Assembly: GCF_036321535.1 (NCBI RefSeq)
Contig: NC_087436.1
Coordinates: forward strand, 75,394,001 to 75,458,000
DNA from: Camelus dromedarius
Lineage: Eukaryota
DNA length: 64,000 nucleotides
Direction: 5' to 3'
Shown here: piece by piece, positions 9,541 through 64,000 of the stretch
How the letters are laid out: every line of letters starts with the position of its first letter
Position numbering within the stretch: position 1 is the first letter of the stretch
Notes under the pieces: model-generated
Databases searched by the model: none
What the model was told of the DNA's origin: nothing
What the model saw: the letters and a program-made list of their open reading frames with translations, nothing else
Position numbers and translations under genes: made by a program

Positions 9541-9607
9541 CTAGCTAGCTCTGCTGTCCTAACAAAGAGTTAATGAGAGAAAAAAAGAGCGAGAGAAAGC
9601 AAGTGAG

Positions 9608-9678
9608 CGTGTGTGTGTGAGTGTGTGTGTGTGTGAGTGTGTATGTGTGAAAGAGAGAGACAGACAGACAGACAGAGA
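9608..9678. repeat. Compound microsatellite (GT)n(GA)n(GACA)n
   Basis: Seen directly. Confidence 0.9.
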
Positions 9679-19244: not shown

Positions 19245-19412
19245 TTTGTTTATATATTTTTTTATTGAAGCATATAGTCAGTTTACAATGTTGTGTCAGT
19301 TTCTGGTGTACAGCATAATAGTTCAGTCGTACATGAACATACATATTTTTTTTTCATATTCTTTTTCACTGTAAGTTACTACAAGATATTGAATATAGTT
19401 CCCTATGCTATG
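19245..19412 (-). mobile_element. 5'-truncated cetartiodactyl/camelid L1 3' end with TSD
   Basis: tttattgaagcatagtcagtttacaatgttgtgtcagtttctggtgtacagc...gaatatagttccctatgcta; TSD GATTTACTTTT at 19234-19244 and 19413-19423. Confidence 0.9.
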
Positions 19413-20347: not shown

Positions 20348-20385
<38 letters not shown>

Positions 20386-20691
20386 TTATTTATCTATTTG
20401 TTTATGCAAGGAATTGGCTTGTACATATTTTGTGATCTAGATAGGCCACTGGACTCTGCAGGCCACCATGGAATTTCTTCCTCAAGGAAACCTCAGCTTT
20501 TCTCTTAAGGCCTTTCAACTGTTCGAATCAGGGGCACGCAGATTATTGAGTGTAATCTCCTTCGCTTCGAGTCAACTGATTGTAGATAATTATCTGTACA
20601 AAATAGCTTCACAGTGACACCTAGATAACTGGTTGACTAAATAACTGGGGACTACAACCTAGCCAAGTTGCCGCATAAAACTGACCATCAC
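20306..20691 (-). mobile_element. ERVL LTR (MLT2D-like) containing (AC)n at ~20349-20383
   Basis: cagaaaaacagaac...ggaaacctcagcttttctcttaaggcctttcaactg...ctagccaagttgccgcataaaactgaccatcaca. Confidence 0.88.
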
Positions 20692-21689
20692 AGAAGGGCT
20701 TTGCACTTTGGACTTCTAGACGGCATGTCAACTCTGATGTGGCATATTCTGCATTATTCCAATGAAGGGTCACTGATGCCATGGTTATGACTTCATCCCT
20801 GTGTGGATGGTTGGCTTGATTCTCCCCCCGCCTCGCCCTCATCTTTAAGTGGCCATAAAAAGGCAGCAGCATGAACGGACAGTCATAAAAGCACCATCAC
20901 AGGTGGAAAACAGCTCCAGGAGCATGCCCTACTGATGTGGTTTTAATTCCGGCTGTTAACTAATTAGTAACGTCCAGGTGAAGAGGCATGTGGCATTACC
21001 ACTGAATAGCAGGTGAGGCCCAAAGAGAGTTAAGGGCTTGCCAAGACAGGAAGTCCTTTGGGCTTGCCTTGGGACATCCATCATCTGCTTCCACTTCTGG
21101 TATATTCACCTGTCAGCTCTTCTGATTTATCTGACCATATGCATGATTATATCATGATTACTTCAAATGCACATTGTGGACAACATTTTCATTTTCATTG
21201 ACTTTAGGTTTGATCTTTCAAAACTGAAGTAACTGGTGAGCAAGTCAGTGCATCCCTCTTGGTTTCCTTCAGTCAGATTGGATGGCCTTAATCGTTTCCT
21301 TTAATATTCCCATGACAGGCTTTCACTCTCTTGATCACTTTTCTTGCACTCCCCCGAATCTTCTCACATTGTTCTTGGAGTTCAGAGGTTGGAAATGTGC
21401 TCTCAGTCGTCCAGGTTCAGAACGTGGTGTGAGGAGCAGGGAAGGATGTGGTTTTTACCACCACAAGGGTGCTTTTGCTGGCTCTTTGTCCTCTGGAAGT
21501 CGGTGTGCCTCGAGTGTAGTCGCAGACCTGCCTCTTCATCGATGGGCTTTGCCTAGGTTCTCATCCAGCCCTGTGGCTTCAGATATGGCATCTCTATACC
21601 GACTCACCAGTGCCTTCCTCCATCCCTGATCCCTCCTGTGCAGACACAGATGGAACATCTCTATGTTACTTCTCCATTTATATGTCTAG

Positions 21690-27733: not shown

Positions 27734-28340
27734 TCGAAAAGATACATGTACCCCAATGTTCATAGCAACACTATATGCAGTAGCCAAGACATAGAAGCAA
27801 CCTAAATGTCCATTGACAGATGACTGGATAAAGAAATTGTGGTATATTTATACAATGAAATACTACTGAGTGATAAAAAATAATAAAGTAATGCCATTTG
27901 CAGTAACATGAATGAACCTGGAGATCGTCATTCTAAATGTAGTATGCCAGAAAGAGAAAGAAAAATACCATGTGATATCACTCATATGTAGAATCTAAAA
28001 AGGAAAAAAAAGAAAAGAAAAAGAGGACACTAATGAACTCATCTACAAAAGAAACAGACTTGCAGACATAGTAAACAATCTTATGGTTACCAGGGAAGGG
28101 GGGGTGGAAAGGAATAAGTTTGAGAGTTTGAGATTTTCAAATGTTAACCACTGTATGTAAAAATAGATAGAAAACCAAATTTCTCCTGTATTGCACAGGG
28201 AACTATATTCAGTATCTTCTAATAACCTTTAATGAAAAAGAATATGAAAGTGAATATATGTACACATATGCATGACGGGGACATTATGCTGTAGATTAGA
28301 AATCGACACATTGTAACTGACTATACTTCAATAAAAAAAA
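27734..28340 (+). mobile_element. 5'-truncated camelid-type L1 (ORF2 C-terminus, 3'UTR, A tail)
   Basis: Translates KDTCTPMFIA...KQPKCPLTDDWIKKLWYIYTM...KYHVISLICRI* (L1 ORF2 end, with internal stops); TSD TATATGGAATTTTA at 27720-27733 and 28342-28355, at a TTTT/AAAA endonuclease site. Confidence 0.96.
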
Positions 28341-28888
28341 TTATATGGAATTTTAGAGGAACCTGAGACTTGAGTCCAATCTCTTTGTTTCATGGATGGC
28401 GAATCTTGACTTGTTTTGGATGAGAAGTCCATGGGCCATGCACTCCAATCTTTTAGTGCTTTGATTATGAGCTGAGGAACTGGCCTATGAAAGACTTGTT
28501 GTCAAATTAATCCTGAGAGTGATATAAGGGCTCTGAGCCTTCACCCCGCATTCACCCCTGTACATATGATGTGCATGAATTGTAAAGTTAAGACTCAACC
28601 AATTGCTTCTGAAAATTTGCAATATTAAGAACAAAAATCAAGTTAAATTTATAGCCTAATGCCTGCTCAGTTTAACTGACTGCAAAGCCAGGGTTTAAGG
28701 TGCCACTGATGAGAAACAAAGGAGGTGTCAAAAATACAAAAAGCACTGAGGACCTTTGTGGAAATTGTCAGAGCCTCTCTTTTCTGGGTATTCATTGTGG
28801 GTTGAGAAAGAAGAAAGATAAACATTTATCAGTGGCCTACCATGTGTCAGACCCTGTCACATTTAGTAGAGCTGCAAATCCTTTAAAT

Positions 28889-38774: not shown

Positions 38775-39221
38775 ATTTTTTATTGTGGTAAAATAAATAT
38801 CACATGAAATTTGTCAGTTTAACCATTGTAAGTTGTATAATTCAGCAGCATTAATTATATTCACAATATACACCTATGACCATTATTTATTATCAAAACT
38901 TTTCATCACCCCAGACAGAACTTCTGTAAGCATTAAGCATTCACTTCCCACTCTACCCAGTCCATAGTAACCTCTAATCTACTGTCTATATGACTTTGCC
39001 TCTTCTAGATATTTCCAGTAAGTGGAGTCACACAATGTTTATCCTTCTGTGTCTGGCTAATTTGACTAAGCGTAGCATGCATCAGAAATATTCCTTTTTA
39101 TGGCTAAATAGTATTCCATTGTGTGGATATACCACATTTTGTTTATCCATTCATCTACTGATGGACACTTGGACTGTTCCACGTTTTGCCTATTGTAGAT
39201 AATTCTGCAATGAATATTGGC
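38775..39221 (-). mobile_element. L1MB-like 3' end
   Basis: tttattgtggtaaaata...tttatggctaaatagtattccattgtgtggatataccacattttgtttatccattcatc. Confidence 0.9.
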
Positions 39222-40692: not shown

Positions 40693-40745
<53 letters not shown>

Positions 40746-42576: not shown

Positions 42577-43048
42577 TTTTTTTAACTGTGATAAAATACA
42601 CATAGCATTAAATTTACCATCTTAATTATTTTTAAGTGTACCGCTGAGTAGCATTAAATATATTCACCTTGTTGTGCAACCAATTTACAAAACTCTTTGC
42701 AAAACTGACACCCTGTATCAATTAAACAATAGTTCCCCGTTCCTCATCACCCCCCACCCCAGTCCTGGCAACCACCATCCAACTTTCCTCCTCTATGAAT
42801 TTGACGACTCTAGGTACCTCATATAAATGAAATTACAAAATATTTGTCATTTGTGACTGACAGCATAGTGTCTTCAGGTTCATCCATGTTGTAGCATGTG
42901 TCAGAATTGTGTTCCCTTTTTAAGGCTGAATGATATTCCATTGTATGTATACACCACATTTTGTTTATCCATTAATCCACTGTTGGACACTTGGGTTGCT
43001 TCTATGTTGGATCTATTGTGAATAGTGCCACTACAAATATGAGTGTGT
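42577..43048 (-). mobile_element. L1MB-like 3' end
   Basis: aaatttaccatcttaattatttttaagtgtac...cctggcaaccaccatc...ggttcatccatgttgtagcatgtgtcagaatt. Confidence 0.92.
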
Positions 43049-52389: not shown

Positions 52390-53825
52390 ATACTGCCCCA
52401 TTTTCATCCAGTCTGACAATCTTTATCTTTTCACATTTTCATTCAGTGTAATCACTGATATTTTAAGGTTTATATATGCTATTTTACAGTTGTTTTTTTT
52501 TTTGTCACTTCTGTTTTCTTTTTCTTTTTTTTTTTTTCTCTTTTCATCTTTTGGATCAATCTAATATTTTTATATTTAATTTCCCATTAGCTTGTTAGTT
52601 ATGCATGCTTTTATTATTCCTTTAGTGGTTATCCTAGTGATTAAAATATGTAATATTTCTTCCCACCTACTACTAGAACCTTAACACTTCAGCTTAATTT
52701 ATCCCTCTACTAGCTTAAGTGTCATTGTTATTATGCATTTTATGCTTACATATATTTTAAATCGCCCAAAATGTTATCATTTTTGCTTTTACAGTTATTT
52801 ATTTAGATTTATCCACATGTTTGCCCTTTTGATTACTCTAAACTCCTTCCTACATTACTGTGTTTCCATCTAGAATCATATTCCTTTTGCCCGAAGAACT
52901 AACTTTAGTTTTTTTTTTTAAGTTTGAGTTTGGAGATTACAAATTCTCCCAGGTTTTATTAATTTAAAACATCTGTATTTCACTTTCATTGTTGAAGGAT
53001 ATTTTTGCTTGGTATAGAATTCTAAGATGGTGATGGTTTTTGTTTCTCACTTTAGAGATTTGCCTCCTGACTTTCACTATTTTTTGATGGACAAGTTAGC
53101 TGTCAGTTTTAGCATTTATCTTTGAAGATAATTCCTCTATGGCTTTTAAGATTTTTCTCTGTGGAAACAATCTAAGTGTCTGTTGATGGATGAATGAATA
53201 AAGATAATGTGGTATATAAATGTACAATGGGATATTGTTCACTCTTAAAAAAAAGAAGGAAACCCTGTCATTTGCAACAACATAGATAAACCTGGAGAGC
53301 ATTATGCTAAGTGAAATAACCCAGACAGAAAGACAAATACTGCATGTTATCACTTATATGTGGAATCCAAAAAAAAAAAAAGCCATACTCATAGAAACGG
53401 AGAGTAGAAAAGTAGTTGCCAGGGGCTGGGGGTGGGGAAGGTAGGGACCAGTTGGGGGAGAAAAAGGATTTTTCTCTTTGCTGTTAGTTTTTTGTAGTTT
53501 TACTCTGATGTGCTTAGATATTATTTTCCTTGTATTTATTCTGCTTGATATTCATAGCACTTCTGGAATCTATGGTTTGATTATTTTCTTCTATTTTGGA
53601 AAATTATTGGCTATTATTTCTTGAAAAATTTGTTTCTGCCTATTTTGTATCGTTTCTTTCTCAGGACTCGATTGCTCATATATATTTTAAACCTTGTAAC
53701 ATGTTCCATGTGTCTCCCATGCTCTTTTCCATACTTTCTGTTCTCAGTGCTTCAGTCTGAGTATTTGCTATTACTTACCCTCCTGTTTACTAATTTTTTT
53801 TAGTTATATCCAGTCTTCAGTTAAG
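52390..53825 (-). mobile_element. Old L1 (L1MD/ME-like) internal fragment
   Basis: T-rich antisense L1: atccagtctgacaatctttatcttt...ttgaaggatatttttgcttggtatagaattcta...ttggaaaattattggctattatttctt. Confidence 0.85.
53161..53465 (+). mobile_element. L1MA/MB fragment nested in the older L1, with TSD
   Basis: ORF2-end sequence aaacaatctaagtgtctgttgatggatgaat...cattatgctaagtgaaataacccagacagaaagacaaatactgcatg; TSD GATTTTTCTCT at 53150-53160 and 53467-53477. Confidence 0.9.
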
Positions 53826-55796: not shown

Positions 55797-55886
55797 GAGA
55801 AGAGCTGGATATAGCTCAGTGCTAGAACACATGCTTAGCATGCACAAGGTCCTGGGTTCAATCCCTAGTACCGCCATTAATAATAA

Positions 55887-58136: not shown

Positions 58137-58333
58137 GATTAGCAGATACAAATTTCTATATATAAAATAGATAAACAACAAGGTCTTACTGTACAGCACA
58201 GGGAACTATATTCAATAGCTTGTAATAAACTACAATGAAAAAGAATATATATACGTATGTATAACTGAATCTATGCTGTACACCAGGAGCTAACACAACA
58301 TTGTAAATCAACTATACTTCAACTTTTAAAAAA
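58137..58333 (+). mobile_element. 5'-truncated cetartiodactyl L1 3' end with TSD
   Basis: gataaacaacaaggtcttactgtacagcacagggaactatattcaa...acattgtaaatcaactatacttcaa; TSD ATCACATAAGTT at 58125-58136 and 58334-58345. Confidence 0.93.
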
Positions 58334-60161
58334 ATCACATAAGTTACATGTTTTGTTACTGAAAAAATAGAAAATATGGATAAGCATAAAGGAAAAAAAC
58401 AAAAAATCACCAAGAATCCCCACCCAGGAGTGACCATCCTTCACTTACTAGTTTGTTTAATTCCATACTTTGTTTCCATGACCAGAAATATATTTTAATT
58501 ATAAAAAAGTATTGTATTCTACATACTAGTTTGTAATTTGAAAGCATAGCTTTGGGGTTGCTTTATTTCTTCTTTCTCATTTTTGGCCTAAGAAGCCCAG
58601 GGGATTTAAAATGAAATGAATTAATCAATAATTAAAGTAGGGTTATTGTACCATACAGATGAAAGAAAATTTAAGTTGACAGTTGATATAGTGCTATTAT
58701 AAAATACTATAATTTCCCCCAAGAAATTTGCGTACTGATGAGGGATGTATTCATTGTTTATTTTTAGCATTAAACAAGTGTTCAATAAATACTTAACCAA
58801 GTGAATTATTTTTTGTTGTAGTTTTTCAAAGCCCCTTGCTCTTACTTTAAGATATTTGAGGATGGAGGCAATATATTATCTGCAAGAACACTTTATTCAC
58901 TTTATTATTGAAAAATTTGAAAGCCGTTTAAAATGATCATATTTTGATTGCTTTTTAGGTTTGTTGTAATCTAATCCTTTAATCTGTAGTCTAGTGAAAA
59001 ACTATTTTAAGACTGTTTCTTTTGCAGAGTGTGTTAGATTGGAAGAGAGGATTATAAAGTGATGGAATTGCTATAGTAACATGGAAAATCTGTACAATTT
59101 ACTTTACAATGTTATTTCTTTGGACTTTATGGCTTTATCCAGAGTTTTAGCTATTGAGGAACTCCAGTATCCCTACCTTCATAAAGCAATTTTATGGCAC
59201 CATAGAAATTGATTTGTAAAGTTTTAAACCTGAAAAATATATGGCCATCTATCTAGGCCTTGGTAGAGGGCTCATTTTATTTAAAATTAACCATAAATTA
59301 TTTACTCTCTAAGGACATTAATATAAGGCAGTTTTTTTGGACAAATCCAATGCCTAGATGAAGAAACATTTTCATTGTAGTTTGATTCCAGTGAAATAAT
59401 AACCTTCAACATTATGGAAATTTTGTAGTGACATCATTTAAGCATTGTTTTCTCAAGACCTCACATCAACTGGGGTATCTTGAGTCATGGGGACAGATAT
59501 TTTCTTGAGGATAAGCAAGTTCTCAGCCAACACCCAGGAATTATGCTAGGGCAAGGGGCTCAACAAGCATAAAACGAGCTCTCCTTCCTGGAAGAGTCAT
59601 AGTCTAGTAGGAAGACAGATATGTGAGCAAACTGAGGAATACTTCCTGGGCCCCAGTAAATTTAGTTTTGAATTAGTAGGAAGAAAAATTATGTTTCTGT
59701 GAATTAAAGTGAGAAATTATTCCACGTTTTTAGAACACCGTGTGTGGAGTTCAATAAGTAGGGTCCAGTGACTGAGAGCTGCTAAAAGGTATACCAGACT
59801 ATTTTGGAGTCTAGGATCACTGAGGAAATAGTTGAGATGAAGGGGAGAATTTGATGCCCAGTGTAAGCATGCCACATCTGGAGAGAGTAGAGATGACAGG
59901 TGCCTTAGAGCCATCATTTGCTGAACTGATGTGGCCATCTGAGGTCTGAGTGAAAAGGAAGAGGCTTTGCCAATGACCTATGTAGTCTTGAAAATGCAAT
60001 CTGTGGTGTCATTCCTTTCTTCTAATGCAACATCCTGAGTCTTCACTGCTAGGGTCCTGACTAACTAGTAATTTCACTCTGTTTTACCTGTGTTGGCCAG
60101 AGTGGGAAGATGGGAAAGTCAAGCTACTTAGGAAATGTTTAGAAGATATTTGTTTGGTTTA

Positions 60162-61255: not shown

Positions 61256-61683
61256 CATGTCATTGTCCTTCAGAGAAACAGAACTAATCAGAGACGTGTG
61301 TGTGTGTGTACTTGGAGAGGGAGAGGGAGAGAGGAGGAGAGGAGGGAATTTATTTTAAGGAATTGGCTCATATGATTGTGGGGACTGGCAAGTTTGAAAC
61401 CAGGAGAGCAGGCCAGGCAGGCTGGAAACTCGGGCAGAATTTCTGTGCTACAATCAGAAAGCTGAATTCCTTCCTCTCCAGGAAACCTCAGGTTTTGCTT
61501 TTAAGGCCTTCAGCTGATTGAATGAGGCTCATCCATATTGTTGGGGATAATTTCCTTTACTTTACTAATTATAAATGTTAATCACATCTCTAAAATACTT
61601 TCACAGCAACATCGAGGCCAGTGTTTGACCAAACAGCTGGTTGCCAGAGCCGAGCCAAGTTGGCACAGAAATTAACCATCACA
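61256..61683 (-). mobile_element. ERVL LTR (MLT2C-like)
   Basis: cagagaaacagaactaat...atttattttaaggaattggctcatatgattgtggggactggcaagtttgaaa...gccaagttggcacagaaattaaccatcaca. Confidence 0.92.
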
Positions 61684-61889: not shown

Positions 61890-62395
61890 TAAGCAACTTG
61901 TGAGCTGTGAACACTTGTTTGTGCCAGGCCCAGGACAGTGCCTGCTCTGAGGTGCTCACAGTCTGGTCTGGCCATGCTAACATTAGATGTGAGTGCAGTG
62001 AAGCAGGACAGTGTGTGCAGGAAACAGGGGTCACAGAGAAGCTGTGGGGAGCCACACCCCACTGGGGGTGCAGTGTTCAGAATTAAGGGTTAGGAAATGA
62101 TTTGTCCTTGAGGCTGAAGGTTGAAAGAAGTGTGTTGGTTTGCAGACTCTTTGGAGAAGTCAGGGAGAAGTGGGGATCCAGGAGGAGGGTAAGACGTGAG
62201 ACCAGATGAGGGAAGCTGGGGCTTTCTGATGCTTGACCAACTTGAGTGGGTGAAAGTCTCAGGACTGTGAGATTTGCCAAGCCTAGGGAAAGGGGAGCGC
62301 CAGATGATGGGGTCTGCACTTTATCCCATCAGGGGTAAAGATGAGCCATAGGGTAGTTTTAAAGCAGAGAATAATAATGGGTAACACTCTTAAAA
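61890..62395 (-). mobile_element. L2 fragment
   Basis: tgtgccaggcccaggacagtgcctgctctgaggtgctcacagtctgg...gagccatagggtagttttaaagcagag. Confidence 0.7.
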
Positions 62396-62630
62396 GAGGC
62401 TTAGTGTTTAAAACTCAGCCAAATAGTATGGCAGTTTTCAACCCATGAGAAATAGGAATTTGGGTTCGGAAATCTCTGGGAAGATGAATTTCACTATAGT
62501 CTGTGGTATCTTCACCAGTTCAATTCAAAGTCATCCGAGCAGCCTTTGAAAGGACAGAAACAGGTCTCTGTGAGATCTGTGCTATACTTGGGTTCAAAGT
62601 TACTTCAAAATGGGCACATTTGACTTCAAT

Positions 62631-63844
62631 TGTGTCCCATATTTTCACTGCAAACATTTTTGTTGTGAGCAGTTTTACTCCACAACTAGTTGGCATTGGA
62701 CAATTTTGCTGTAAAAGATAAAATAGAAACAAAAGCAAAATAAAAGAAGAACATTAAAAGAACATACTGAAACATGAAAAATTAACAAAATTTTAAAAAG
62801 ATTTTATTGTGTAAAATACAAAAAGCATTTGAACATATTTAAAATGCGTGTAGATTAATGGTTATAGTTGTATCAGGTGTATCTTAGAGAAAGCGGTGAT
62901 ACTTCCTTTCTCAAATCCATCGTTAAGGATTCAGGATCTAACATCCAGCATAAGTTCTTTACGATATTAAAAAAAAGATCTGCTGTTAAGTCTGTTCAGA
63001 TTCCCCTGGAAGTAAAACAAACAGACGAGGGATGCTGTTATTTCCCATCAGTACACACAGTGTGTATAACTGGTGGTGCACATCTGGACTACATTGAAAC
63101 GTTCCAGCACATGCCCAGTCCTTACACTCCACCAAGTCATCTAAGTCAGAGTCTGCACCAAACCCCAAATTCTGTCTACATCATGTCCTCCACTATCAAA
63201 TGGTGAAAAATCTTCACCATTTTCAAGAAACTTATCAGGAGTCGGGTAATGATTTCTTTCTGAGGAGACAGGAGAAGCTTGATTCTTCTTTTGCCTCCAG
63301 TTTCTAATATTATCTGATAAATTTGGTAAAGACGGCGTTAGAGAACATGACATTGAATCTAAATTAGCCAAAGAATTGAACATTGATGCTCTGGAAGACT
63401 GTTGCGAATTAGTAGCCACCTCTTTGATACTCACCGTAGCTTGGTACTTTTGGTTTTGATGGGTGGAACGAATGACTGTGCTCAACAAAGGATTTGCAAA
63501 ATGATATGTTATTTTCTAGTATAGCATGCAGTCTGAGTTTATGCTCTCCTGTTTCACACTTCCAGTAAGTTTTCTCATCATCACATTTCATATCAAGTCA
63601 ATCAATATACATAGCTGTTATCATCTACTATTTTAAGCCCGCCACATCTACTCGTCACTGTGTAGACCATTATGCGGTTTACTAAGATTTCCATAATAAA
63701 AAAATGAGAGTATCTTGTCAACGGAGAAGGGAAACCAAACTGTCAACCAGTTATTTTATCTTTTACAGCTGAATTGTCCTAGGGCCAATTCATTGTGTGG
63801 CAAAAACTGCTTCTGGCAAAGATTCTTATGAAATACCTAGAACA
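62631..63844 (-). mobile_element. Mutator/MULE-MuDR DNA transposon (Ricksha-like), internally deleted
   Basis: Long degenerate TIRs (62698-62725 vs reverse complement of 63752-63779: 26/28 identical, similarity extends outward to ~90 bp) enclosing a fossil MULE transposase. Confidence 0.9.
62860..63670 (-). pseudogene. Fossil MULE transposase (FLYWCH zinc finger + N-terminal part of the DDE domain), frameshifted and truncated
   Basis: Joined frames: MVYTVTSRCGGLKIVDDNSYVY*...EKTYWKCE...EHSH...LPNLSDNIRNWRQKK...NGEDFSPFDSG...KDWACAGTFQCSPDVHHQLYTL...IPRLFVLLPGESEQT*...LDPESLTMD(F)EKGSITAFSK. Confidence 0.9.
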
Positions 63845-64000
63845 AGATTCAGTATGGATTCAGTATGCTGGTAGGTGGGAAATTGGAAAAAAATTTCTGA
63901 GACCTTTCTACACTGAGCCCTGCTTAAAATTCTCTGCTTATGACTATTACTTTCCTTTCCAGTTTGTTGAGAAATATCAGTTTCATCCATTTATGTTTAT

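Follow-up and report, generated by a model that had tools for sequence, protein, structure and literature searches.

We found that positions 62632-63843 of a 64-kb window of the Camelus dromedarius genome (NC_087436.1, 75,394,001-75,458,000; assembly GCF_036321535.1) very probably hold a dead, amplified and internally deleted derivative of a Phantom-type MULE transposon in a mammal. Taken alone, the identity of this element as a MULE is close to certain. No present function is demonstrated for the fossil. All coordinates are those of the whole 64-kb window, and the transposase lies on the minus strand. Homology to proteins that carry both FLYWCH and MULE domains supports the original prediction, namely a dead MULE with an internal deletion and a FLYWCH domain at its N-terminus. 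Self-comparison found no second copy of the element within the 64-kb window, and Rfam gave no match across it.

The family assignment rests on relatives with both domains because a direct Pfam match is absent. A Pfam match to FLYWCH or MULE had been set beforehand as the test of the assignment, and it failed for the separate window frames, as none of the 11 (6 ORF pieces and 5 read-through frames) matched either family. A DUF5133 match in the window frames was below the cut-off and was judged to be chance. A word-indexed protein search with the 64-aa ORF as the query returned 6 candidates, and no E-value was as low as 1. When one frame, its stops written as X, was used in a full HMMER scan, 257 representative proteins matched at E<=0.001, the best at 6e-21. 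Of 17 matched proteins that were scanned, 13 carry FLYWCH, MULE or both above the Pfam cut-off; the remaining 4, all of them short, have no Pfam family. The best match, P0001 (453 aa, Caligus rogercresseyi, Pfam FLYWCH and MULE), is colinear in four pieces on 63670-62974 with an E-value of 1.7e-39, and nothing comparable was found elsewhere in the window. A search with the closest piece reached P0154, a 467-aa FLYWCH and MULE transposase from Macrobrachium rosenbergii. In a frameshift-aware alignment, the minus strand from 63670 to 62860 matched aa 1-264 of P0154 with 130/257 identities (51%), 5 frameshifts and 1 stop, with a score of 559 compared to 31-46 for 5 shuffles. Other relatives carry the match on to aa 271, which adds a sixth frameshift. 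A profile of 9 intact or near-intact relatives matched the window at model positions 1-236 (E 3.8e-35), and the C-terminal part of this profile had no match in six frames of the whole 64-kb window. For the FLYWCH domain, window aa 1-66 align to the FLYWCH regions of the Pfam-positive relatives, and the sister fragment P0015, itself a FLYWCH fossil, passes the Pfam cut-off (24.9 bits vs 23.6). Homology to the MULE DDE domain (PF10551) was found through relatives above the Pfam cut-off together with the relatives' profile.

On the minus strand, the 5′ terminal inverted repeat (TIR; 63752-63843) is followed by a leader of about 82 bp (63671-63751) that runs to the start codon. The ATG at 63670, proposed as the start, aligns with residue 1 of the intact relatives, and the three minus-strand ORFs that had been noticed are present as the stop-to-stop frames 63409-63597, 63141-63515 and 62986-63180. 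The fossil FLYWCH zinc-finger region (aa 1-66, 63470-63670) contains a stop at 63602, with a frameshift near 63598. The fossil linker region (aa ~75-170, 63165-63446) has frameshifts near 63447 and 63163, and the fossil N-terminal half of the MULE DDE domain (aa ~172-271, 62860-63162) has frameshifts near 62990, 62916 and 62878. The minus strand then crosses an internal deletion junction at 62857-62865, where aa ~271 is joined in frame to aa ~462, and continues with the last six transposase codons (xNLHxF) and the native stop (62839-62859), an AT-rich (81%) 3′ region of about 114 bp (62726-62838) with AATAAA at 62808, and the 3′ TIR (62632-62725, plus strand).

As predicted, the first catalytic Asp reads Ala, since the minus-strand codon 63108-63106 encodes Ala where the aligned relatives have Asp. 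The predicted absence of the CxxH motif and the terminal Glu was likewise borne out by the profile, which matches only positions 1-236 in six frames. Past the equivalent of aa 271, the window reads INLHAF-stop. Its C-terminus is PDTTITINLHAF-stop compared to WNLH(T/S)F in the intact relatives, and P0154, P0269, P0161 and P0165 all end in NLH(T/S)F. The pattern NLH-x-F/Y-stop occurs a single time in six frames of the 64-kb window. Because the native NLH-x-F end is kept, aa ~272-461 (190 codons, about 570 bp) were excised in frame, and a simple loss of the C-terminal half is ruled out by the retained end. On P0154 numbering, the deleted interval includes C273-x-x-H276, W366 and E384. Muta1 requires the DDE triad and the matching W for cleavage and joining, as described in PMC5499845. 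Among these features of an autonomous MULE, the second catalytic Asp is present (62917-62915, minus strand), the first reads Ala, and CxxH, W and Glu are deleted. Among five other fossil fragments that cover the first Asp site, four keep Asp and one has Gly. The Asp-to-Ala change is decay private to the Camelus dromedarius copy, and the non-autonomy of the family is due to the deletion rather than to this change. No undeleted mammalian copy was seen among the contigs of four public runs; therefore, we infer an autonomous parent of about 1.8 kb (1.2 kb plus 570 bp).

The element was predicted to lie between TIRs of ~90 bp with a 26/28 core. The core was confirmed, since 26/28 bases (93%) are complementary between the arms 62698-62725 and 63752-63779, and the inverted match extends to 60 bp at 80% likeness (E 2.8e-7 within the window), which gives cores of 62668-62725 and 63752-63811. 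Over arms of ~92-94 bp (62632-62725 vs 63752-63843), 65/96 columns agree. The outer third of the arms alone was no better than shuffles (p=0.14), so this part of the prediction did not stand by itself, and sequence beyond the arms was likewise no better than shuffles (p=0.57). The outer ends are thus approximate, and a TIR length of ~90 bp is plausible, of which ~60 bp is observed. Paralogous contigs match the element at both ends. A search for a target-site duplication, expected to be 8-10 bp in MULEs, found none: of 24 candidate repeat pairs, not one was located at the inferred ends with 1-2 mismatches or fewer, and decay or uncertain ends could hide one. Some Phantom members have TIRs with subterminal tandem repeats. 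In both arms, the TIR self-match was highest at a lag of 15-16 bp (30/79; 29/77 and 29/76), a weak signal that has no shuffle control. The degenerate TIR pattern had no match in the viral and metagenome contig collections.

Whether the 1.2-kb form had amplified was raised in the original prediction, and the answer is that it had: the junction is common to paralogous contigs and to P0012, and there are many copies. Contigs of the four public runs were aligned to 62300-64000 at 80% likeness. In the DNA runs X12 and X7, 53/84 and 58/88 contigs, respectively, were less than 95% alike to the window. The flanks were at single-locus depth, while the 5′ TIR core reached ~50 times the flank level of summed depth in both DNA runs. 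Summed contig depth, which is a rough sign and not a copy number, peaked at 63725-63781 and returned to the single-locus level from 63839. About half of the aligned contigs continue into unlike sequence, as dispersed copies with different flanks, and some contigs hold both element ends (joints 62733>63738 and 62781>63734). As a rough sign, there are dozens of related loci. Among the records listed, at least three paralogous ones extend beyond the junction by more than 31 letters in both directions (X12 records 2 and 3, and X7 record 25), spanning 62759-62935 and 62812-62941 in X12 and 62759-62935 in X7. P0012, a fossil-like ORF from a cluster of 3 members, ends in YPNTTLAMNLHTF with the same deletion junction, and contig variants at 62847, 62857 and 62874 convert window codons to P0012 residues. 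Since at least two paralogous contigs and P0012 have the same junction, the 1.2-kb form itself spread. Nine chosen paralog pieces were 11-20% different from the window, a range biased low by the 80% cut-off. On this basis, each copy would have changed by ~10%, which corresponds to some tens of millions of years at an assumed substitution rate. Several contigs lose their match at 62876, adjoining the junction, and these breaks may represent other forms of the element. Related-locus scans found no confirmed relatives in 22 viral stretches and 105 metagenome contigs. In the RNA-type run X15, the junction-crossing paralog in record 10 (62759-62935) had a depth of 107 vs 22-24 for the locus flanks, and it may sit in a transcript. 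Record 9 of the same run (62364-62734) contains flank and TIR with 6 differing letters in 371 bp; this insertion is common to a related strain or species.

The window also contains other repeats. Two related repeats (61464-61683 and 20471-20692, 69% alike) are presumably MLT2-type LTR ends, of which one is ~950 bp away from the transposon and does not belong to it. Old L1 fragments, 72-81% alike to each other, were found at 19251-19411, 28190-28345 and 58195-58335, and at 27753-28012, 53164-53382, 39072-39220 and 42871-43019, and we take the L1 3′ ends in the window to be of the cetartiodactyl type. Dinucleotide microsatellites are present at 9603-9649, 20349-20385 and 40693-40744. Self-comparison found no abundant young SINE in the 64-kb window. 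At a relaxed threshold, ARAGORN reported a tRNA-Ala at 55804-55875 that is followed by an A-rich stretch and a (TAG)n tail. The camelid SINE vic-1 is derived from tRNA-Ala. The element at 55804-55875 is probably a tRNA-derived SINE of the vic-1 type, a simple SINE known from camels as described in PMC3531059.

We built a tree from 39 longer proteins and window aa 1-271. The results show that the window is sister to the prawn, octopus and sea-louse proteins (support 95.3/96), and that both lie inside a larger clade with crustacean and other proteins (99.7/99). A clade of the window with three salamander MULEs was rejected, being 64 log units worse (p-AU 1e-7; AU test with a fast search and 5000 replicates, flagged as few by the program). 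For the N-terminal part, the window forms a clade with the fossil fragments P0015 and P0044 (UFBoot 95); for the DDE part, it does so with P0012, P0004, P0016, P0017 and P0024, at a weak UFBoot of 76. P0081, P0021, P0052, P0009 and P0003 were considered as sister fossils and were placed outside the window clade. In the DDE-part tree, the sister of the window clade is P0156 and not the prawn group. The fossil clades are star-like, and the short internal branches with long tips fit one burst followed by neutral decay. The majority residues of 9 fossil rows, including the outsider P0081, are 68% identical to Macrobrachium (120/176), 54-57% to sea lice and 30% to newt.

A horizontal origin from an invertebrate is somewhat likely. 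Horizontal entry is the simplest reading of these relationships, which do not formally fix its direction; an identity of 68% marks a deep relationship, and it names a clade and not a donor. Kinship with whipworms found no support, as no whipworm is named among the 120 matches listed out of 123, a further 6 matches or the 30 proteins identified individually. Among P0154, P0269, P0191 and P0251, the Macrobrachium and Palaemon proteins fall in one 90% cluster, and the Octopus sinensis and O. vulgaris pieces match the prawn protein at 71% and 75% identity, respectively. The prawn-octopus similarity suggests that transfer may also have occurred among aquatic invertebrates. In vertebrates, P0159, P0222, P0223, P0244 and P0255 are NCBI-predicted FLYWCH and MULE proteins of 385-579 aa from the newts Lissotriton helveticus and Pleurodeles waltl. 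These are apparently intact vertebrate MULE transposases, contrary to the 2019 survey.

The following history would account for the element. The parent would have been a Phantom-type MULE of about 1.8 kb that encoded a FLYWCH and DDE transposase of ~467 aa. Its horizontal entry into the ancestor of the host, perhaps tens of millions of years ago, would have been from the clade that prawns, octopus and sea lice carry today. During the active life of the parent, an in-frame loss of ~570 bp between aa ~271 and aa ~462 would have arisen in one copy, possibly via a short repeat at two Ile/Leu-Thr/Ala codon pairs. This loss would have removed CxxH, W and the catalytic Glu and retained both TIRs, so that the short form may have been mobilised in trans by intact transposase. 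All copies would then have decayed neutrally, the Camelus dromedarius copy through six frameshifts, one stop and the Asp-to-Ala change.

The FLYWCH and MULE architecture is that of the Phantom subclass (PMC3169594; group 20 in PMC6446971), and on this basis the element is called Phantom-type. Phantom MULEs, including Muta1 from Aedes aegypti, likewise encode an N-terminal FLYWCH and a MULE DDE domain together in a single ORF of ~470 aa, and the TIRs of the Camelus dromedarius element are within the reported Phantom range of 18-613 bp. In the prawn relative, W366 and E384 are spaced 18 residues apart, as are W401 and E419 in Muta1. The Camelus dromedarius element differs from Phantom in that it is in a mammal and in a non-autonomous, in-frame deletion form. 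Its closest named intact relatives are from Macrobrachium rosenbergii (XP_066969100.1), Palaemon carinicauda (XP_068250292.1), Caligus rogercresseyi (QQP42000.1), Lepeophtheirus salmonis and Octopus. The prawn, sea-louse and octopus proteins have the same start and the same NLH(T/S)F end as the fossil; however, they are intact ORFs in aquatic invertebrates. The salamander FLYWCH and MULE proteins (Lissotriton, Pleurodeles) have the same domain order at 27-30% identity.

The family may already be catalogued under a name other than Ricksha, either as the horse Phantom or as a Dfam model from the 248-mammal work, a possibility that we rate a little short of even. A horse Phantom with a FLYWCH alignment is on record (Marquez and Pritham 2010, as cited in PMC6446971), the 248-mammal work contributed 8263 mammalian models to Dfam (bioRxiv 10.1101/2022.12.28.522108), and a family with dozens of copies is often caught by de novo tools. 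In contrast, Dupeyron et al. (2019), in the latest survey of the whole superfamily, could not detect a MULE transposase in the elements reported from horse and eutherians and called for these to be re-evaluated (PMC6446971), whereas the transposase is plain in the Camelus dromedarius element. The main texts of bioRxiv 10.1101/2022.12.28.522108 and of two camel TE papers hold no mention of MULE, MuDR or Mutator, and neither do the main text and supplement of the bat transfer paper. Our literature search, with subscription journals mostly outside it, found no non-Ricksha MULE family in camelids or cetartiodactyls, and no such family appears by term in the available parts of PMC10162687 (text and supplement), PMC5857283, PMC8605555, PMC6675863 and PMC13359780.

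We consider it unlikely that the element belongs to one of the catalogued Ricksha subfamilies (Ricksha_0, Ricksha_a or Ricksha_b), and hence is an ordinary placental repeat annotated by RepeatMasker. The Ricksha families are likewise mammalian MULE fossils with TIRs shorter than 100 bp, and one short Ricksha subfamily is of similar length to the 1.2-kb element. We take the Ricksha termini and transposase motifs to be unlike those of the Camelus dromedarius element, which would set it apart from Ricksha, including Ricksha_0, Ricksha_a and Ricksha_b. According to PMC5753468, the Ricksha families are the only human MuDR entries in Repbase. The Ricksha TIRs of 79 bp (PMC1431705) are near the 60-94 bp seen here. 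Frith (2022) counted 437 human MULE-MuDR protein fossils, of which 374 overlap RepeatMasker annotation (PMC9004415); annotated mammalian MULEs thus carry transposase remnants, and mammalian MULE transposase fossils are not new as such. Against the Ricksha assignment, Ricksha and Ricksha_c are described as having captured an ERVL 3′ end with an MLT2B LTR (PMC3531169 and PMC1431705), and this insert is absent in the Camelus dromedarius element, the interior of which is taken up by the part homologous to the transposase and two untranslated stretches of 82 and 114 bp. As there is no room for an ERVL/MLT2B insert, Ricksha and Ricksha_c as described are excluded. In addition, paralog differences of 11-20%, a range that the 80% cut-off shifts downwards, may indicate too low an age for a family found across placentals. 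The Camelus dromedarius MULE is probably not Ricksha and would probably also differ from Ricksha_0, Ricksha_a and Ricksha_b. It is highly improbable that the element is a domesticated or exapted host sequence transcribed for function, because even though contigs of the locus are present in two RNA-type runs, these are patchy, include the flanks and cannot show transcription or strand, and the copy has six frameshifts, one stop, two lost catalytic residues and a tip length like that of other copies.

With the element read as a dead Phantom-type MULE, a further MULE invasion of mammals is probable. That the family is both uncatalogued and the product of an independent invasion is a tentative proposal, which we hold to be distinctly less than even. 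Equally tentatively, a laurasiatherian or cetartiodactyl ancestor may have been invaded from an aquatic-invertebrate clade by a MULE that spread partly as the 1.2-kb form. If true, such an invasion would contradict the 2019 view that eutherian MULE reports are misidentifications, and that doubt becomes directly testable with a mammalian MULE transposase that can still be read and has named intact relatives at 51-68% identity. The impact is limited, in that the repeat is dead and its transposon class already known, with 437 MULE-MuDR protein fossils counted in human. If the family is separate from Ricksha, it would represent an independent horizontal invasion of mammals with a link to aquatic invertebrates, and its insertions would be usable as presence/absence markers.
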